Source: Escherichia coli O127:H6 str. E2348/69
GTDB taxonomy: Bacteria; Pseudomonadota; Gammaproteobacteria; Enterobacterales; Enterobacteriaceae
Length of the DNA stretch: 64,000 bases
Reading direction: 5' to 3' (one strand)
Assembly: GCF_000026545.1 (NCBI RefSeq)
Contig: NC_011601.1
Shown here one piece after another: positions 2,292 through 43,434 of this stretch. Under the pieces are notes generated by a model, which was not told the origin of the DNA, ran no database searches, and saw only the letters and a list, made by a program, of their open reading frames with translations. The stretch's first letter is position 1. Each line of letters begins with the position of its first letter. Both the position numbers and the translations under genes were made by a program.

Positions 2292-2307
2292 TGGCATAGC
2301 TCCTGCA
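2292..2307 (+). promoter_or_regulatory. Sigma-54 (RpoN) -24/-12 promoter, TGGCAT-N5-CTGCA, for the transporter/dehydrogenase genes
   Basis: GG at 2293-2294 and GC at 2305-2306 with exact 10-nt spacing; about 40 bp upstream of the transporter start; a sigma-54 activator is encoded nearby (4921-6279). Confidence 0.55.
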
Positions 2308-16423: not shown

Positions 16424-16888
16424 ATGGAAAAGAAATTACCCCGCATTAAAGCGCTGCTAACCCCCGGCGAAGTGGCGAAACGCAGCGGTGTGGCGGTATC
16501 GGCGCTGCATTTCTATGAAAGCAAAGGGTTGATTACCAGTATCCGTAATAGCGGCAATCAGCGGCGATATAAACGTGATGTGTTGCGATATGTCGCAATT
16601 ATCAAAATTGCTCAGCGTATTGGCATTCCGCTCGCAACCATTCGTGAAGCGTTTGGCGTGTTGCCAGAAGGGCATACGTTAAGTGCGAAAGAGTGGAAAC
16701 AGCTTTCGTCCCAATGGCGAGAAGAGTTGGATCGGCGCATTCATACCTTAGTGGCGCTGCGTGACGAACTGGATGGATGTATTGGTTGTGGCTGCCTTTC
16801 GCGCAGTGATTGCCCGTTGCGTAACCCGGGCGACCGATTAGGAGAAGAAGGTACCGGCGCACGCTTACTGGAAGATGAACAAAACTAA
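16424..16888 (+). CDS. soxR: Redox-sensing [2Fe-2S] MerR-family regulator SoxR
   Basis: 154 aa; MerR HTH N-terminus and C-terminal [12 protein letters not shown] cluster-binding motif. Confidence 0.97.
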
Positions 16889-17021
16889 AGCGCCACAAGG
16901 GCGCTTTAGTTTGTTTTCCGGTCTTTGTCTTTCTCTCTATCCCGCTGGTACACAGGAGGGTTTCCCCCGACGTCAACACACCTCATTCGAGCACGTGGTG
17001 GAGGTTCCGGTTGGTGTTGAT
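16882..17021 (-). ncRNA. ryjA: Candidate small RNA RyjA/SraL, antisense to and overlapping the soxR 3' end
   Basis: K-12 has an sRNA of about 140 nt here from memory; a TACAAT -10-like hexamer on the minus strand at 17033-17028; hairpin + T-run at 16887-16917 serves as a shared terminator; boundaries approximate. Confidence 0.4.
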
Positions 17022-22708: not shown

Positions 22709-22918
22709 GCCGAATGTAGGCCGGATAAGGCGTTATACGCCGCATCCGGCAATCAATGCCGGATGCGACGCTGTCGCGTCTTATCAGGCCTACAGCCGTT
22801 GCCGAATGTAGGCCGGATAAGGCGTTCACGCCGCATCCGGCAACCAGCGCCTGATGCGCCGCTGTCGCGTCTTATCAGGCCTACAAACCGTTACCGACTC
22901 GCATCCGGCAATTGTGGG
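22709..22918. repeat. REP/BIME cluster: two tandem units of about 92 bp plus a partial third
   Basis: Repeated GCCGAATGTAGGCCGGATAAGGCGTT...CGCATCCGGCAA...CTTATCAGGCCTAC palindromic units between yjcH and acs. Confidence 0.9.
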
Positions 22919-34067: not shown

Positions 34068-34177
34068 TTTGATAATGAAGTTTGGTAGGGGAGAGACAGT
34101 ATAAAGTGTTCGGGTGGACAAAAAAACAACTGTAAAAAGACCTGAAAGCAGAATGAATTAATGCAATGTCAGGTTTT

Positions 34178-34882
34178 TTAATCCATCCGATGTTCCCCCT
34201 TTTCCATGGCGTCGCGATCAAAAAATCGCTGAATTTTTCCCTCGGACATCAATGCCGCTCGATCAGACATATGCGCGATGACATCGGCATCGTGACTGAC
34301 CAGCAGATATGTCATTTGGTGTTCCAGCTTAAGTTGATTCAACAAATTAAGGATTTCCGCTTGTACCGACATATCCAACGCCGAGGTGGGTTCATCCAGC
34401 AGAAGAAGTTGTGGTCGTAACAACAGGGCGCGAGCAATAACCACACGTTGCCGTTGACCACCGGAAAGCTGGTGTGGGTAGCGACGAGCGGCGTCGAAAG
34501 GCAAGCCAACCTGTTCCAGTGCAGTCTGGACGCGTTTTTCTATTTCTCTTTCGCCACGAATTTTGAGTGGTTCAGCCAGCGTTCGCCACAGAGTATGATT
34601 GGGATGCAACGAGGCATAGGGATCCTGAAACACCATTTGCACATTGCGGCGGAGATCGCCCTGAAAACGCATTCCTGGTTTGATGGTGTGCCCAAACAGT
34701 GACACCTGACCGTGCCAGTCGCGCTGTAATCCAGCAATTACGCGCAAAATCGTGGATTTTCCGCAGCCTGATTCGCCAATTAAACTAAATGTCTCTCCGG
34801 CATTAACCGAAAAACTGGCGGCAGAAACTGCGGTTTTCTCAGCAAAAGTCACCTGTAAGTGATTAATTTCAACAATCGTCAT
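34178..34882 (-). CDS. ABC transporter ATP-binding protein (DppF/OppF-like), accessory operon
   Basis: 234 aa; Walker A GESGCGKST, signature LSGGQRQR, Walker B LLLLDEPTSALD. Confidence 0.85.
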   Translation of the reverse strand: MTIVEINHLQVTFAEKTAVSAASFSVNAGETFSLIGESGCGKSTILRVIAGLQRDWHGQVSLFGHTIKPGMRFQGDLRRNVQMVFQDPYASLHPNHTLWRTLAEPLKIRGEREIEKRVQTALEQVGLPFDAARRYPHQLSGGQRQRVVIARALLLRPQLLLLDEPTSALDMSVQAEILNLLNQLKLEHQMTYLLVSHDADVIAHMSDRAALMSEGKIQRFFDRDAMEKGEHRMD

Positions 34883-35705
34883 GGTATTTCTCCGGCGTCA
34901 TTGCCGTCCTGTCCAGCGTCGGCAGCATCTGCCCGTAAGTTTGTGCATTTGGGCGGCAAGTCCACAGTGTGCGCGTGTAAGGATGCGTTGCTGTAGGTAG
35001 CGCAGCAGCGTGCATTTCATCCACCTTATTTCCCTGATACATCACCAGCACCCGATGGCAAAATTGGGCAACTAATGGCAGGTCGTGACTGATCAGCAAC
35101 ATTGCCATCTGACGTTGTTCACACTGGGTAACCAGCAGTTCCAGAATCTGATTACGCAGGCGCACATCCAGTGCTGATGTTGGCTCATCGGCAATCAATA
35201 CCCGGGGATCGTTGATGAGCGCAATTGCAATCATCACTCGCTGCCCCATGCCGCCAGAAAGTTCACGAGGATAGCTTTGCAGTACTCGCGTATTGAGGCC
35301 GACAGCCTGAATTGCGGTGTTTATTTTCTCTTCTTTCTCGCGGCGGTTCAGACGTTGATGGAGCGTAAGCGCCTCTTCCAGTTGCGCTTTTACTGTCTTT
35401 ACTGGATTAAGCGCGTAACGCGGATCTTGCAATACCATCGCGATATCGTTACCGCGCAACTGTTGCCATCCACGCGCGTTAAGGGTGAGTGCATCACGCC
35501 CCAGAATGTTAAGTGTGTCCGCGGTTACTACACCCGGTTTACGCACCAGCCCCATCAGGGCGCGGGCGGTCATGGACTTACCTGAACCCGACTCACCGAC
35601 CAGCGCCAGACGTTCATTGCCTAATGTAAAACTGACATTGTTGACGACCCGGGACTCCGGATAATCGACGCAGAGATTGTTGATACTAAGACGTGAGTCA
35701 GTCAT
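34869..35705 (-). CDS. ABC transporter ATP-binding protein (DppD/OppD-like), accessory operon
   Basis: About 278 aa from ATG 35705 (MTDSRLSINNL); Walker A GESGSGKS, signature LSGGMGQR; track start 35765 would overlap the upstream permease. Confidence 0.8.
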   Translation of the reverse strand: MTDSRLSINNLCVDYPESRVVNNVSFTLGNERLALVGESGSGKSMTARALMGLVRKPGVVTADTLNILGRDALTLNARGWQQLRGNDIAMVLQDPRYALNPVKTVKAQLEEALTLHQRLNRREKEEKINTAIQAVGLNTRVLQSYPRELSGGMGQRVMIAIALINDPRVLIADEPTSALDVRLRNQILELLVTQCEQRQMAMLLISHDLPLVAQFCHRVLVMYQGNKVDEMHAAALPTATHPYTRTLWTCRPNAQTYGQMLPTLDRTAMTPEKYHDDC

Positions 35706-36531
35706 GTTGAGGCTCCAGAACATCGCGCAAGCCATCACCCAGCAGATTAAAGGCCAGACTGGCAATTAAGATAATTGCGCCGGGAGCGGCGGCAATCCAC
35801 CATTGATCAAAAATGACCTGCATACCGTCGGCGATCATGGCTCCCCATTCCGCCATTGGCGGGCGAGCACCAAGCCCAAGAAAACCCAGGCCAGCAGCCG
35901 CCAGAATGATACCCGCTAAATCCAGCGCCAGACGGACAATGGCAGATGGCAGGCACAATGGCAAAATATGACCAGCCAGCAGACGCCTGCCGCGGATGCC
36001 CATCATTTCTGCGGCGGCAAGATAATCACTGTGTCGCAGACGTTGGATCTCACTCCGTGCCTGACGCGCATAAGCAGGCCAGGTGGTTAATGCCAGCGCC
36101 AGTGCGCCGTTAACCAGCCCCGGCCCCAGCATGGCAACAAAAGCAAAAGCCAGAATTAAACGCGGCATTGACATTACTACGTCAGTAAAACGCATCAGCA
36201 CGCGTTCCAGCCAGCCGCCGTAGTACCCGGCTAAAATGCCAATCAGCAGACCGACCGGGAGTGTAATGATTGTCACCAATGCCACCAGCCCCAGTGCCGG
36301 GCGGCTGCCGTAGATTAAACGTGAAAGTAGGTCTCGCCCGTAACTGTCAGTGCCGAGCCAGTGCTGACGACTCGGTGCTTGTAACCGCGCCGCCGCATCC
36401 TGCCAGTTAGGATCGTGAGGTGCCAGCCACGGCGCGAAGAGCGCAATTAGCATCAATAACAGGATAATTATCAACCCGCAAAACGCGGCGGGTGAATGGC
36501 GTAAACGGCGTAAAAAGAGAAACATCGGCAT
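35698..36531 (-). CDS. ABC transporter permease (DppC/OppC-like)
   Basis: 277 aa; six predicted TM helices; ends 2 nt after the next gene's start codon. Confidence 0.85.
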   Translation of the reverse strand: MPMFLFLRRLRHSPAAFCGLIIILLLMLIALFAPWLAPHDPNWQDAAARLQAPSRQHWLGTDSYGRDLLSRLIYGSRPALGLVALVTIITLPVGLLIGILAGYYGGWLERVLMRFTDVVMSMPRLILAFAFVAMLGPGLVNGALALALTTWPAYARQARSEIQRLRHSDYLAAAEMMGIRGRRLLAGHILPLCLPSAIVRLALDLAGIILAAAGLGFLGLGARPPMAEWGAMIADGMQVIFDQWWIAAAPGAIILIASLAFNLLGDGLRDVLEPQHD

Positions 36532-37580
36532 CAGCGTAACCTCGGATCGGTCAGCCGGACCAGCAGGTCGGTTAAGTTATTTATCAACACAAAGCAGACG
36601 CCAATCAGCAGCGTTCCTCCCATGATTGCTGTGGTATCACCCGCGAAGAGCGCTGTAGTGAGGTAGCGCCCAATACCTGGCCATGAAAAGACGGTTTCTG
36701 TCAGTACCGCGCCTTCCAGCATTGATGTATAGGCGAGGGCGATAACGGTGAGTAAGGTGCCGCGAATGTTGGGTAAAACATGACGTAGCAAAATTGTCAT
36801 CTCGCTGGCCCCTTTGGCGCGCGCCAGCAGAATATATTCTTTATTCATTTCGCCAAGACAGACGGAACGAGTCAGGCGCGTAATACTGGCGAGCGAGAAG
36901 TACGCCAGTAATAAAACCGGAAGTATCAAATGGTTGATTGCATTGGTAAATGCCTCGCGATCGCCAGAAAGCCACGTATCAATCAGCGCAAATCCGCTGC
37001 GGGGTTCTATGGTGAATTGATAAATATCATCCAGCCTGCCCGGCCCGGCACTCCATTGCAGTCTGGCGTAGAACAGCGCCAGCATCAGCAGACCAAGCCA
37101 AAAAACAGGGACGGAATTTCCCAGTAGAGTTAATGTTCGCACGGTGAAATCCAGCGGAGAACCGACATAACGGGCGCAAAGTACACCCGCAATGACGCCG
37201 ACAACAGCACCGACAATAAGCGCCAACGTTGCCAGTTCAATGGTCGCCGGGAATGCTGATAGCAAGTCCTGGAGTACCGGTTGCCCGGTGGAGCTGGCGA
37301 TGCCCAGATCGCCGTGTGCCAGATTCATCAGGTAATGCCAGAACTGGACGGCTAACGGTTGATCCAATCCTAACTGGTGGCGTACCTGATCATAGGTGGA
37401 CTGGCTGGCGTGATCGCCAACGATTTGTAGTACGCGATCGACCGGTGAGAGAGCCGAAAGCGCAAAGGTAATCAGCAGCAGGCCGAGTAGCGTCAGAGCA
37501 ACGGTAAACAGCCCTTGCAACAGCGCGAGCAGAGGGCGTTTGCCTCGCCATCTCGCGCGAGTGGAAAAAACGACAGACAT
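36531..37580 (-). CDS. ABC transporter permease (DppB/OppB-like)
   Basis: About 349 aa from ATG 37580 (GGAAAG RBS); in-frame ATG at 37673 would add 31 aa and lacks an RBS; start uncertain. Confidence 0.75.
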   Translation of the reverse strand: MSVVFSTRARWRGKRPLLALLQGLFTVALTLLGLLLITFALSALSPVDRVLQIVGDHASQSTYDQVRHQLGLDQPLAVQFWHYLMNLAHGDLGIASSTGQPVLQDLLSAFPATIELATLALIVGAVVGVIAGVLCARYVGSPLDFTVRTLTLLGNSVPVFWLGLLMLALFYARLQWSAGPGRLDDIYQFTIEPRSGFALIDTWLSGDREAFTNAINHLILPVLLLAYFSLASITRLTRSVCLGEMNKEYILLARAKGASEMTILLRHVLPNIRGTLLTVIALAYTSMLEGAVLTETVFSWPGIGRYLTTALFAGDTTAIMGGTLLIGVCFVLINNLTDLLVRLTDPRLR

Positions 37581-37679
37581 GATCTTTCCATACAGTGATA
37601 AATCAGCGGCTGGCCTGCAATACAGGCCAGCCCTGGTACCGCGCCCGGTAATATGGCTGGACGCGAGTTGCATACAGGG

Positions 37680-39248
37680 TTATTTGGTTACCTGATCAAA
37701 CCAGACCATATCGGCATTCAACCCTTGTTGATACCCCTGCACATTATCACGCATGACAATTTGCGTTTTGCCTTGATCAATAAAGACATACGGGGAACTA
37801 CGTTGTAGTTCTTGTTGCATTTTCTTATACAAATCAAGACGTTTAGCGCTATCAGGTTCAGCGATGGCCGCCAGCGTTTCTTTGTTCAGTTCCGGGATTT
37901 TCCAGCCGTTTAACCCGGCAACGGTGCTGGATTTGCCATCGTTATAGGCGAAAGAGCTGGCGTTGGAATGTGCGTCAAAATAATCAGGCAACCACATACG
38001 AATGGCCCCCTGATGCTGGTGGGCGCGAACGCGAGAGTAGACCTGACTCCCTGCGGCTGGCAGCAAATCAACTTTTACACCGCCCTGAGCAAAGCTGGCC
38101 TGAATTGACTGCGCGATGGTAATAAATGGCGGTTTATTTTCGACATCAAGCGTGAAGTGCGGGTCTTTGATTCCGGCTTTAGCGAGGATCTCTTTTGCTT
38201 TGGCTGGATTAAAGGTAAACGGTGTTTCTTCCAGTGCTCCAGGAAAGCCCACGGGCAGGAAACTTTGATGGGTAAAATATTGTCCTTTTAAGAGATTTTT
38301 GGTGATGCCGTCGTAATCGACCAACCAGCGAGCGGCCTCCCAGAACGCAGGATTACTCATCAGCGGGTTATCCTTGTTACCGGTATTGAAGGCCAGGTAG
38401 TTCTGTTCGGCGGAGGCAATGCTCATCACTTTTACGCCAGGTTTACCCTGTAATGCATCGATTTGATCGGCTCCCAGATCACGAGCCATATCAGCATCAC
38501 CTTGTTGGATCAGCAGGCGACGCGTTGCCGGATCGGGAACATTTTTGATGATGACGTTTTTCAGTTTCGGGGCGCCGGTTGGTGAGCTGGCGTTGGCTTC
38601 CATCACGATGGCCTGATGCGGTTGGTAAGTACGCATTTTAAACGCGCCGCTGCCAGCGGAATGCATCTTCAGCCATTCATTACCAAAGTCGTTATTTTTG
38701 GCGTTTGGCGCAACCAGCTTCTCGTCAACAATTGAGGCGATTGGTGTGGAGAGAATATTCAGTGCCAGCGCCGGGCTGACGTCGGCACTCCATTGCACCT
38801 GGACGGTATGGTCATCGATTTTCTTCAACTGGCTGGCGATATTTTCCGGCTGCCATCCCAGCACATTGAGAATAAACGCACCGGATTTATTCAGTGTGAC
38901 AGCCCGGACATAAGAGTAAATCACATCTTCCGGGCGTACCGGATTACCAGAGGCAAATTTCGCATCGCTTTTCAGTTTTATGGTTAGCGTTTTGGCTGCT
39001 GGGTCAGCCTGCCAACTTTCCGCCAGAATCGGAGTGATTTTCGTCGGATCATTACGGTCCGGTTGTACTACGCGTTGATACAGACTTGGTACAGTCTGAA
39101 TACTTGAGAGTTCATTAGCTTCTGCCGGGTCCAGACTCACAATATCATCCAGTCCCTGGGCTACAACCAACGTATTAGGCGGTGTAGCGGCAACGGTTGT
39201 GGCGGAAATTGTGCTTAAAACCAGTAAAGGTAATAGTTTTTTAATCAT
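37680..39248 (-). CDS. Periplasmic substrate-binding protein, family 5 (peptide/nickel/opine type)
   Basis: 522 aa; signal peptide MIKKLLPLLVLSTISATTVAA; size and composition typical of DppA/OppA-like proteins; clearly not NikA-like at the N-terminus. Confidence 0.8.
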   Translation of the reverse strand: MIKKLLPLLVLSTISATTVAATPPNTLVVAQGLDDIVSLDPAEANELSSIQTVPSLYQRVVQPDRNDPTKITPILAESWQADPAAKTLTIKLKSDAKFASGNPVRPEDVIYSYVRAVTLNKSGAFILNVLGWQPENIASQLKKIDDHTVQVQWSADVSPALALNILSTPIASIVDEKLVAPNAKNNDFGNEWLKMHSAGSGAFKMRTYQPHQAIVMEANASSPTGAPKLKNVIIKNVPDPATRRLLIQQGDADMARDLGADQIDALQGKPGVKVMSIASAEQNYLAFNTGNKDNPLMSNPAFWEAARWLVDYDGITKNLLKGQYFTHQSFLPVGFPGALEETPFTFNPAKAKEILAKAGIKDPHFTLDVENKPPFITIAQSIQASFAQGGVKVDLLPAAGSQVYSRVRAHQHQGAIRMWLPDYFDAHSNASSFAYNDGKSSTVAGLNGWKIPELNKETLAAIAEPDSAKRLDLYKKMQQELQRSSPYVFIDQGKTQIVMRDNVQGYQQGLNADMVWFDQVTK

Positions 39249-39533
39249 ATGCTTCCCAATCCCTAAAATTACTTTGAGGTTATTAATATGCTATCAGACG
39301 GGGGTTCGCTGCATTAATCGCGCCAGAATATCCCGTTAATAGAACGAGTTAAACGGTCGATGATTTCTCACCTTACCGAAATTTTGTTTATCAAATGTAA
39401 AGTATTATTACGTTAGGCCGCGATGAGAATTGAGTAAAGATAATTCTCATTTGCAATCGTGACAGGAATAGAAGAACAACCGAGAAGACGTCGCTAATAA
39501 CCAGAATGGGCTGGTTTGACTGCGCAGGTATGT

Positions 39534-39569
39534 ATAAAAAAATCCGGAAACAGAGAGTCGTTTCCGGAT
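39534..39569 (-). terminator. Rho-independent terminator of fdhF
   Basis: Hairpin ATCCGGAAAC-AGAGAGTC-GTTTCCGGAT followed on the minus strand by a U-run. Confidence 0.65.
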
Positions 39570-39622
39570 TGATACAAAGGCGTTGGGTAATATCGCCGCT
39601 TTTAACGTGAGTTTACGCGGTA

Positions 39623-41770
39623 TTACGCCAGTGCCGCTTCGCGCAGGCGAGTTTTCAACTTGTTGTACTCGTCAATCACGTACTGCTCGGCGGCGCGCTG
39701 ATCGGCGATCGGCTCGACGCGCACGGCGCAGTATTTGTATTCCGGCGTTTTCGTAATCGGGCTTAAGTTTTCGGTAACCAGCTCGTTACAGGCACCAATC
39801 CACCACTGGTAGGTCATGTAAATCGCCCCTTTGTTCGGACGATCGCTGACCTGCGCACGGGTGATAATTTTGCCTTTACGCGAGTGCACCCAAACCAATG
39901 CCTCATCTTCAATACCCAGACGTTTGGCGTCTTCGGTATTGATTTGTGCGTAGCCAGGTTCATCAGCCAGCGCCGCCAGTGCCGCACAGTTACCGGTCAT
40001 CGAACGGCAAGAGTAGTGACCAACTTCACGCACCGTTGACAGTACCATCGGGTACTCGTCGGTGAGTTTGTCGATTGGCGCGACCCAGTCGCAGGTGAAG
40101 AACTGCGCCAGACCGTTCGGGGTATCAAACTTCTCTTTAAACAGATAAGAAGTCCCCTGATCGGCATCTGAAGTATCCCGGCAAGGCCACTGAATGAAGC
40201 CCAGTTCGCCCATTTTTTCGTAAGTCGCACCGTAGAAATCCGGGCACAGATGACGCAACTCATCCCAGATCTCCTGGGTGTTGTTGTAGTGCATCGGATA
40301 ACCCATACGGGTGGCGATTTCACTGATAATCTGCCAGTCCGTTTTCAGATCCCATTTCGGTTCAACCGCTTTGAAGAAACGCTGGAAGCCACGGTCAGCC
40401 GCAGTAAACACGCCTTCATGCTCGCCCCACGACGTTGACGGTAAAATAACATCCGCCGCCGACGCGGTTTTGGTCATAAAGATGTCCTGAACGATGACCA
40501 GTTCCAGATCTTCAAAGGCTTTACGTACTGCCGACAGCTCCGCGTCAGTTTGCAGCGGATCTTCGCCCATAATGTACGCGGCACGCACTTCGCCATGCGC
40601 TGCGCGGTGCGGCAGCTCGCTGATGCGATAGCCGGTATGAGCAGGCAGGCTTTCCACGCCCCAGGCTTTGGCGAATTTCTCGCGGTTAGCCGGATCTTTC
40701 ACGTACTGGTATCCCGGATACGTATCCGGCAGCGCGCCCATATCGCAGGCACCCTGCACGTTGTTCTGACCACGAACCGGGTTTACACCCGCATGCGGCT
40801 TACCGAGGTTACCAGTCAGCATCGCGAGGCTGGTCAGAGAACGCACGGTTTCCACGCCCTGGTAGAACTGGGTTACACCCATGCCCCACAGGATGGCGGC
40901 GCTTTTCGCCTGGGCATACATCCGCGCCGCCTGACGAATCTCACTGGCGCTGACGCCGGTGATATCTTCAACCGACTCCGGCGTGTAGCCTTCAACGATT
41001 TTACGATACTCTTCAAAGCCTTCTGTACGGGAAGCGACGAAAGCTTTGTCGTACAGGTTTTCTTCAATAATGACATGGCCCATCGCATTCAACAGCGCGA
41101 TGTTCGAGCCGTTTTTCAGTGCAATGTGCATGTCAGCAATGCGCGCGGTTTCAATTTTGCGCGGATCGCAGACGATAATTTTCGCCCCGTTACGTTTAGC
41201 GTTAATTACGTGATTCGCCACGATTGGGTGGGAATCCGCCGGGTTGTACCCGAAAACGAACACTAAATCGGTATTATCAATTTCGTTAATAGCATTGCTC
41301 ATTGCGCCATTACCGACCGATTGGTGCAGACCTGCAACCGATGGGCCGTGTCAGACACGAGCGCAGCAGTCAACGTTATTGGTACCAATAACGGCGCGCG
41401 CAAATTTTTGCATTACATAGTTGGTTTCGTTACCCGTACCACGCGAGGAGCCGGTCGTCTGGATGGCATCCGGACCGTACTTCTCTTTGATGGCGCTCAG
41501 GCGCTCGGCAACGTAATTCAGTGCCTCATCCCAGGAAACAGGTTCGAGTTTGCCGCCACGCTGGCGACGGATCATGGGGGTTTTCAGGCGCGGGGTCAGG
41601 ATCTGGGTATCGTTAATGAAATCCCAGCCATAATAACCCTTCAGACACAGGGTACCCTGGTTGGTTTTCCCCTGCGCTGCCTCCGCCCGGACGATTTTGC
41701 CGTTATCGACGACCAGGTTGATTTTGCAACCTGATGCGCAATAGGGGCAAACCGTGACGACTTTTTTCAT
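39623..41770 (-). CDS. fdhF: Formate dehydrogenase H (FdhF), selenocysteine-containing molybdoenzyme
   Basis: 715 codons with in-frame TGA at 41351-41353 (codon 140, selenocysteine); the two track ORFs 41351-41770 and 39623-41302 are one gene; N-terminal Fe-S cysteines CPYCASGC. Confidence 0.95.
41305..41350 (-). other. SECIS mRNA hairpin directing selenocysteine insertion at the fdhF UGA
   Basis: Minus-strand sequence immediately 3' of the UGA reads CACGGCCCATCGGTTGCAGGTCTGCACCAATCGGTCGG, a stem-loop matching the fdhF SECIS as I remember it. Confidence 0.8.
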
Positions 41771-41821
41771 CGGTCTCGCTCCAGTTAATCAAATCACGCA
41801 TACGCGCTCTCGACTACAGTA

Positions 41822-41837
41822 TGCATCTTTTATGCCA
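41822..41837 (-). promoter_or_regulatory. Sigma-54 promoter of fdhF (minus strand TGGCAT-N5-ATGCA)
   Basis: Reverse complement of 41822-41837 is TGGCATAAAAGATGCA with GG-N10-GC spacing, about 55 bp upstream of the fdhF ATG. Confidence 0.75.
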
Positions 41838-41967
41838 CATTTTATTTGGGGTCATTCCCTGATATTACGGGCACTATTTATTCAAAACTCTGACGAAAAA
41901 CAGGCTGTCGTCAGTTTTGACGTGACGAAACGAAATACCGCGTGACAGCCATCACGCGGCAGACATT

Positions 41968-43434
41968 TTATTTTTTCTCGACGACGGGAGCCGCCTGATA
42001 CCCGCCGCCCAGCGATTTCATCAACTGAATGCTTTGGATCACCCGGCGGCTGTCCAGCATCAGTAATGACATCTCTTCGGCAAGTACTGGCAACCGGGCT
42101 TCAGTGGCCTGTAAGCGGCTGGTTAAGCCGCGTTGATAGGCGGCCTCGGCAGCGCGCTGGGTGAAGCGCGTTGCTTCCACGCGTTCAGCCTGCATCTCTC
42201 GCTCGTCGTTGAGCGTTTGCAGACGCGTGCCGTTGACGGCAACGTCGCGCACCGCATTCAGCACTGACTGGTTGTAACGTTCAATCATCATGTTGCTGGC
42301 GGCGCGAATGCCTTCGAGATTGGCATTCAACCGTCCACCGTCAAACAGCGGCAATTTCAGACCCGGGATAAAGTTGAACTGGCGACTGGTTTTTTTGAAT
42401 AAGGTATCCAGGTGGATAGAATCCAGGCCGAAAAACGCTTTGATATCAAAGCTCGGGTAGAACAACGCCCGCGCGGAATCCACCTGATCTAATGACGCCT
42501 GAACATACCAGCGCATCGCTTGCAGATCCGGGCGTCTGGCGAGCAACTCATAAGAGAGTGTCGCCGGAATACCGGTCTGGACTCGTGGTAATGCCACCGG
42601 TTTGATCTCCGGCATATCGCTGGCTCCCGCGCCAATCAATGCGCGCAGAGATTCCCGCGTTTCAGTGATTTGCCCTTTGACGGCAGCAATTTGTTTATCG
42701 ACCGCCAGAATCTGTGCCCGCGCGCCGTGGAAAGGCACTTGCGCTTCCAGACCGTGCGCCACTTTACTCTGGTGCGCTTTCACCGCGTAATCAATCACAT
42801 CGCGAGTTTGTTCTAACAGATCGAGCATCTGATAGCTGGCCTGCATACTGTAATAAAGCTGCGCTACGCCCGTGGTCAGCGATAGCTCTACTGCTGCGGT
42901 TTCTGCCAGCGCGGCATTATGCGCGCCAATGGCGGCAGCAACCGCTGAGCGATGCACACCCCACAAATCGAGATCCAGTCCGGCAAACAAACCGACTGTG
43001 GCTTCCGTATAGTACGGCCCGTCCATCCCCAGTGCGGGCGCATCCATCGCATAAGGGCTTAAAAAGCCGTTCGCCGAGACACGTTGGCGGTTGAGCATCC
43101 CTAACGCTGCGACCTGTAATTGTGAACCGGCATCTAACAAATCGGCCTGCGACTGCGCTTTTTCTTCCCGCAGTTTCGCTTCGGCGAGGGTGTGTGAACC
43201 ACTTAGCGTCTGTTGGACCAGTGCATCCAACTGCGGGTCATTGAGTTGTTTCCACCACTGCGCCTGCGGCCAACCGGAGCTGGCAAGATGAATATCATCG
43301 GCCAGTTTGATTTGTTCCGGTTTGAGCTGTTGATGAGGCGCAGAATCCTTACGTACCAGGGCACAGCCGGAAATCAGCGTCGTGCTGCCGAGAATGCTGC
43401 ACAACAGCAGGCGTGAAAGTTGACGATTGATCAT
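41968..43434 (-). CDS. mdtP: Outer-membrane efflux channel MdtP (TolC/OprM family lipoprotein)
   Basis: 488 aa; lipoprotein signal LISGCAL; K-12 operon position. Confidence 0.9.
   Translation of the reverse strand: MINRQLSRLLLCSILGSTTLISGCALVRKDSAPHQQLKPEQIKLADDIHLASSGWPQAQWWKQLNDPQLDALVQQTLSGSHTLAEAKLREEKAQSQADLLDAGSQLQVAALGMLNRQRVSANGFLSPYAMDAPALGMDGPYYTEATVGLFAGLDLDLWGVHRSAVAAAIGAHNAALAETAAVELSLTTGVAQLYYSMQASYQMLDLLEQTRDVIDYAVKAHQSKVAHGLEAQVPFHGARAQILAVDKQIAAVKGQITETRESLRALIGAGASDMPEIKPVALPRVQTGIPATLSYELLARRPDLQAMRWYVQASLDQVDSARALFYPSFDIKAFFGLDSIHLDTLFKKTSRQFNFIPGLKLPLFDGGRLNANLEGIRAASNMMIERYNQSVLNAVRDVAVNGTRLQTLNDEREMQAERVEATRFTQRAAEAAYQRGLTSRLQATEARLPVLAEEMSLLMLDSRRVIQSIQLMKSLGGGYQAAPVVEKK

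Follow-up and report, generated by a model that had tools for sequence, protein, structure and literature searches.

The fdhF upstream region of Escherichia coli E2348/69 very probably comprises a native sigma-54 promoter and an FhlA enhancer

We conclude with high confidence that the sequence upstream of fdhF in E. coli E2348/69 is the native control region of this gene, composed of a sigma-54 promoter and an FhlA enhancer, and that it would be activated by formate. A control region of this kind at fdhF is already known and is ordinary. The initial annotation had called it expected biology, and we concur: it corresponds to the textbook fdhF sigma-54 promoter with FhlA enhancer, in the commonest E. 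coli form. The features are listed in Table 1, where positions are those of the window, the whole 64-kb stretch of E2348/69 DNA that was analysed, and negative numbers are counted from the predicted transcription start.

Table 1. Features in and around the fdhF control region of E2348/69
Feature	Position	Strand	Description
Terminator-like hairpin after mdtP	41936..41961	-	CCGCGTGA/TCACGCGG arms, then T-rich TTTCGTTTCG
Distal GTCACG element	41941..41946	-	-135 to -130; 20 bp upstream of second GTCACG
Enhancer core TTTCGTCACGTCAAAACTGACGA	41908..41930	-	-119 to -97; two inverted TCGTCA hexamers and palindrome CGTCAAAACTGACG
Second enhancer block CCTGTTTTTCGTCAGAGTTTTG	41883..41904	-	-93 to -72; carries third TCGTCA
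Conserved spacer block CCGTAATATCAGGG	41857..41870	-	-59 to -46; between enhancer and promoter
Sigma-54 -24/-12 element GTGGCATAAAAGATGCA (17-mer)	41822..41838	-	GG at -25/-24, GC at -13/-12
Predicted transcription start	41811	-	19 bp downstream of motif centre; 41-nt 5' UTR
5' UTR	41771..41810	-	Small GC hairpin and Shine-Dalgarno GGAG (41782-41779)
Small GC hairpin GCGC-GTAT-GCGT	41796..41807	-	5' end of predicted fdhF transcript
fdhF coding sequence (formate dehydrogenase H)	39623..41770	-	715 codons
SECIS_2 (Rfam)	41304..41358	-	87 bits; begins at TGA codon 140
ABC-transporter island	34129..39617		5,489 bp replacing 27 bp of K-12 between fdhF and yjcO

Results

A sigma-54 promoter motif upstream of fdhF

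The gene upstream of fdhF, mdtP, ends at 41968 and leaves an intergenic region of 197 bp. Inside this spacer, on the fdhF strand and pointing at fdhF, lies the 17-mer GTGGCATAAAAGATGCA. It includes TGGCATAAAAGATGCA (minus strand, 41837-41822), a match to TGGCAC-N5-TTGCW whose GG (41836-41835) and GC (41824-41823) doublets are 10 bp apart, giving the exact GG-N10-GC spacing. The end of the motif is 52 nt from the fdhF ATG (41770). A minus-strand sigma-54 motif with this spacing, about 55 bp upstream of the ATG, had been proposed in the initial annotation, and both the motif and the distance are borne out.

Taken alone, the -24/-12 match is at chance level for 64 kb. The pattern TGGCA-N7-TGCA was found twice in the window as compared to 1.26 occurrences expected from the shuffled window. 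When we scored the window with a sigma-54 matrix derived from 186 known promoters (Table 2 of PMC7658346), the fdhF site received 13.4 of a possible 21.3 bits and ranked fifth, and 14 of 20 shuffled windows attained the same score. One possibility raised by these numbers is that the GG-N10-GC match arose by chance and that fdhF is transcribed from another promoter. Several observations speak against this. The identical 17-mer upstream of fdhF in K-12 is occupied by sigma-54, being the ChIP-seq peak OS41, which has a fold-above-threshold score of 41, is flagged as experimentally confirmed in EcoCyc and has a predicted start 41 nt from fdhF (PMC4591121, Table 1). The match is intergenic and correctly oriented, its own predicted start likewise falls 41 nt from the start codon, and no sigma-70-type promoter was found in 41500-42200.

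The motif is also conserved among orthologues. We compared 81 fdhF loci, 80 of them fetched from about 25 genera of Enterobacteriaceae and the last being the window itself. TGGYA-N7-TGCW was retained at 78 of the 81, at a distance of 51-84 nt from the ATG, while the spacer bases varied. We regard the -24/-12 motif as real because it is a ChIP-seq site in K-12, is conserved in orthologues and has a conserved enhancer upstream of it. The chance explanation is thus effectively refuted already, and we assign it a negligible probability.

The three fdhF-like loci with no recognisable -24/-12 element belong to Entomohabitans, Leclercia sp. 29361 and Enterobacter sp. BIGb0383. In one of them GG is replaced by TG, and another has no recognisable element of any kind at that position; all three retain the CCTGTTTTYCGTCAGGGTTT block. 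Their promoters may be degenerate, or these copies may be regulated differently.

TGGCA-N7-TGCA has one further exact match in the window, TGGCATAGCTCCTGCA (2292-2307, plus strand), which is also the best hit of the sigma-54 matrix there, at 16.1 bits. It lies ~35-50 nt upstream of a gene for a DASS-family anion symporter, which is followed by one for an Ldh-family oxidoreductase (genes to ~8100). Genes for a sensor kinase and a sigma-54-dependent regulator adjoin the symporter and oxidoreductase genes, and second copies of sucC, sucD and lpdA lie on the other side. TGGCATAGCTCCTGCA probably serves an accessory island as a genuine sigma-54 promoter, and we take this island to resemble the one for alpha-ketoglutarate utilisation (KguS/KguR) in uropathogenic E. 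coli.

Transcription start, leader and coding sequence

We placed the transcription start in the window by the rule given in the footnotes to Table 1 of PMC4591121, which sets it 19 bp past the motif centre. The exact start at 41811 is therefore a prediction. At the 5' end of the predicted transcript, the small GC hairpin keeps its stem but varies in its loop where the UTR is ~40-45 nt long, and it is absent from loci with predicted UTRs of 26-31 nt (e.g. Enterobacter, Kosakonia, Lelliottia).

Within fdhF, codon 140 (41353-41351) is an in-frame TGA that encodes selenocysteine, and the SECIS_2 element found there is the expected selenocysteine insertion hairpin. Elsewhere in the window the sraL small RNA (Rfam, 153 bits; 16881-17021, minus strand) and two tandem naRNA4 (REP-type) elements (22719-22881, plus strand) were detected.

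A conserved enhancer footprint

To define the upstream footprint we aligned the 81 distinct fdhF upstream regions on the fdhF-sense strand. A conserved footprint was found at 41883-41946, 72-135 nt upstream of the predicted start, so that the conserved blocks lie within the ~70-150 bp typical of an enhancer for an AAA+ activator. The core is nearly invariant across the 81 regions, with the form TTCG-W-CACGTCA-N5-TGACGA (41929-41908, -118 to -97), which can also be given as TTCGWCACGTCA-N5-TGACGA. In the second block the conserved form is CCTGTTTTTCGTCAG (41904-41890) followed by N-GTTTTG, to 41883. The distal GTCAC (41946-41942) is 70-80% conserved. The core is most likely the main FhlA binding site.

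The footprint is rich in repeats. TCGTCA/TGACGA occurs three times (41928-41923, 41913-41908 and 41896-41891), with hexamer centres 15 and 17 bp apart, so that the outer pair is separated by 32 bp (~3 helical turns). GTCACG occurs twice (41946-41941 and 41926-41921), and TTTCGTCA occurs twice, 32 bp apart. A direct repeat, TGACGAAA, with a spacing of 32 joins the third TCGTCA, in the second block, to the first, and the palindrome CGTCAAAACTGACG occupies 41922-41909. The three TCGWCA hexamers fit within 38 nt and form the sole cluster of at least three within 45 nt in the 64-kb window; 0.06 such clusters were expected, and any was seen in only 6 of 100 shuffles. The initial annotation had noted GTCGTCA/TGACG-type repeats in 41880-41950 and had named this stretch as the expected FhlA activator region. 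The repeats are present, and the conserved footprint falls inside the range, which is consistent with that role.

A terminator-like hairpin of mdtP shares the distal element

A terminator-like hairpin of 11 pairs, 6 of them G-C, directly follows the mdtP stop codon, and its 3' arm contains the distal GTCACG. In Escherichia the sequence thus assigns this element to the mdtP hairpin as well. It could be argued that the repeats at 41880-41950 represent the mdtP terminator and no activator region at all, as the hairpin with its T-rich tail covers the upper 15 bases of this range. However, the hairpin does not reach the strongly conserved blocks (41883-41930), and of the 80 other fdhF loci only 14 have mdtP within 1.5 kb upstream, although the core is present at 73 of the 81 loci. 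In 64 of these 73, a GTCAC-type word (GTCAY/RTGAC) occurs in the 45 nt upstream of the core, mostly as GTCAC or GTCAT and 16-20 nt away. In genomes without mdtP the complete hairpin is not conserved. We rejected the terminator-only explanation for the core blocks because the core is kept at loci without mdtP upstream, and for the range as a whole we consider it very improbable. The distal element likewise belongs to fdhF control, because it is kept at loci that mostly lack mdtP upstream. In E. coli the terminator and activator-site functions probably overlap and are not mutually exclusive.

Assignment of the enhancer to FhlA

FhlA has been named as the activator of fdhF in E. coli, Salmonella and Proteus (PMC11841067, PMC3844500, PMC7658346), and FhlA binding and formate-dependent activation are stated for K-12 (PMC11291172, PMC11841067).

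Published descriptions of FhlA sites were of limited use for scoring the enhancer. With a 14-column FhlA matrix built from 13 sites (PMC7658346), the top intergenic match was the palindrome CGTCAAAACTGACG (41909-41922) at 8.56 bits; the window contained 103 hits of at least 8 bits, and in view of this low specificity we set the matrix aside as proof of a site. The 16-mer consensus CATTTCGTACGAAATG, which PMC4987338 quotes and attributes to Leonhartsberger et al. 2000, had 7 mismatches at its best position here and 5-7 at the known hyc/hyp sites, and so discriminates poorly. No natural site fits it well, the known ones included, and only its half-site was usable: TTTCGT was found 36 times across the window, 3 of them in 41880-41950. 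We also derived a rigid 25-nt matrix from the 81 fdhF enhancer cores. It recovered no known enhancer in the K-12 hyc, hyp, hydN and hyf regions and was rejected as a test for FhlA sites. The layout of the fdhF site is locus-specific, because this matrix misses the other FhlA-regulated enhancers.

The TCGWCA cluster rule was more informative. In 17 kb of K-12 DNA covering hyc and hyp, it marked the hycA-hypA and hycB-hycA spacers and, as a close pair, the region upstream of hydN. These are three of the four places with TCGWCA clusters or pairs in the 17 kb, the fourth being inside the hyc genes. Presumably the hycB-hycA spacer holds a known FhlA site. Like the fdhF enhancer, those of hycA-hypA, hycB-hycA and hydN consist of TCGWCA/TGWCGA clusters with TTTCG half-sites, and they sit ~100 bp or more from their sigma-54 promoters; the hexamer arrangement and spacing differ from those of fdhF. 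The same rule marks all three regions, and the hexamer signature is therefore common to the formate regulon, hyc, hyp and hydN being FhlA-activated operons (PMC3844500, PMC4987338).

Another possibility is that FhlA shares the enhancer with a second sigma-54 activator, such as its paralogue HyfR, or is replaced there by it. The identity of an activator is not readable from sequence alone, and the published FhlA models score the site only modestly. This must be set against the literature that names FhlA as the fdhF activator and against the hexamer signature that fdhF has in common with the FhlA-regulated hyc, hyp and hydN regions, and it leaves a role for HyfR highly improbable. We assign the enhancer to FhlA because of this literature, the near-identity to K-12, the position of the footprint at enhancer distance and the regulon-wide hexamer signature. 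The individual bases that FhlA would contact are inferred. An enhancer roughly 110 bp upstream of the start was reportedly described by Birkmann and Bock in 1989, which is consistent with the position found here.

The activator gene itself, fhlA, is present in E2348/69 (1093076-1095154 of NZ_CP059840.2, 692 codons, no pseudogene flag; the record labels it 'flhA'). It lies outside the window, as do hycA-I, hypA-E and hydN-hypF, which are annotated in the genome without pseudogene flags.

Comparison with K-12 and with other species

The stretch 33000-41800 matches the E2348/69 chromosome with 100% identity. In K-12 MG1655 fdhF occupies the same locus, mdtP flanks both regions, and 196 of the 197 intergenic bases are identical. 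The -24/-12 element, the enhancer blocks, the UTR and the start codon are all the same as in the window. The sole substitution is at 41846 (A in the window, C in K-12), at ~-35 and 9 nt upstream of the -24 element. It lies outside every conserved element, and A is found at this position in ~60% of the rows of the cross-genus alignment. Of 5,426 complete E. coli genomes, 5,419 contain the 197-bp region, with at least 99% identity in 5,289 of 5,420 matching records. Of 40 records sampled evenly through the ranking, 17 showed 100% identity to the window. The window therefore carries a common allele.

The fdhF region of Salmonella enterica (STM4285) has TGGCATAAAACATGCA, which as in E. coli lies at -67 from the ATG, with one spacer base of the -24/-12 element differing from E. 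coli. Its second block is the same, and its core, TTCGACACGTCAAAACTGACGA, matches that of E. coli except that its variable W position is A where E. coli has T; upstream of the core the two species differ in sequence. In Salmonella LT2 the TGGCATAAAACATGCA site is bound by sigma-54, and fdhF is up 29-fold with a constitutive activator (PMC3844500). The fdhF and hyf promoters of Proteus mirabilis, a different genus, have the same logic according to their published description: there is an RpoN site with two predicted FhlA sites, and in a reporter assay the promoters were formate-induced and lost activity in fhlA and rpoN mutants (PMC7658346).

The neighboring island lies beyond the 3' end of fdhF

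K-12 lacks the 5.5-kb ABC-transporter island that E2348/69 has downstream of fdhF. Homology to K-12 ends 5 nt beyond the stop codon of fdhF, at 39618, and picks up again at 34128. The island has five ABC-transporter genes, for one substrate-binding protein, two permeases and two ATPases. Among 5,426 complete E. coli genomes, about 1,043 match 80% or more of an 8.8-kb stretch containing the island. Because the island adjoins the 3' end of fdhF, ~2.2 kb from the promoter, it never put the promoter at risk.

This bears on the claim in the initial annotation that the locus is regulated intact despite the neighboring insertion. The comparison with the published fdhF promoter revealed no mutated element, and by sequence identity the cis elements are intact. 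Such identity speaks to cis elements and not to working regulation, and the word "despite" was misplaced given where the island lies.

Two further features of the island were observed. A terminator-like hairpin just inside it (~39565-39535) now follows fdhF. A sigma-54-like motif, TGGCGCGATTAATGCA (39310-39325, minus strand), scored 13.0 bits, similar to the fdhF site. The first gene of the island, which encodes the substrate-binding protein, has its ATG (39248) 62 nt downstream of this motif. An 8-bp inverted repeat, TGAGAATT...AATTCTCA, is located a further ~100-125 nt upstream of the motif (~39450-39420). The island contains no activator gene, and the TGGCGCGATTAATGCA motif could be due to chance.

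Discussion

The arrangement described here suggests the following mechanism. RNA polymerase carrying sigma-54 would bind the -24/-12 element (41838-41822) as a closed complex that is unable to start alone. The formate-sensing AAA+ activator FhlA would bind the enhancer at 41883-41946, 72-135 nt upstream of 41811, through TCGWCA/TTTCG half-sites ~15-17 bp apart, of which the outer two, separated by 32 bp, are predicted to lie on one face of the helix. Formate-bound FhlA would then hydrolyse ATP, loop the DNA to contact the polymerase and open the promoter, and a transcript with a UTR of ~41 nt would read into fdhF. For E2348/69, sigma-54 occupancy and dependence on FhlA and formate are expected by analogy, from the literature on K-12 and its relatives.

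Parts of the region may have additional roles. The spacer block CCGTAATATCAGGG shows 70-90% column conservation across genera and is separated from the -24/-12 element by an A-rich stretch; no match to the IHF consensus with at most one mismatch was found in 41771-41967. It could be speculated that CCGTAATATCAGGG or the UTR hairpin is an undescribed cis element and that the overlap between the distal FhlA element and the mdtP hairpin lets read-through and activator binding interfere with one another in E. coli. We consider this doubtful. If it were true, CCGTAATATCAGGG could bind a DNA-bending protein or a second regulator that tunes looping, and the hairpin could stabilise the mRNA.

The cross-genus footprint sharpens the picture of which enhancer bases are constrained, namely TTCGWCACGTCA-N5-TGACGA, CCTGTTTTTCGTCAG and the distal GTCAC, and this could help in applications of the fdhF promoter as a formate biosensor. 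For E2348/69 itself, our results indicate that this pathogenic E. coli strain very probably carries the standard formate-responsive fdhF control region, and that the adjoining island does not touch it.
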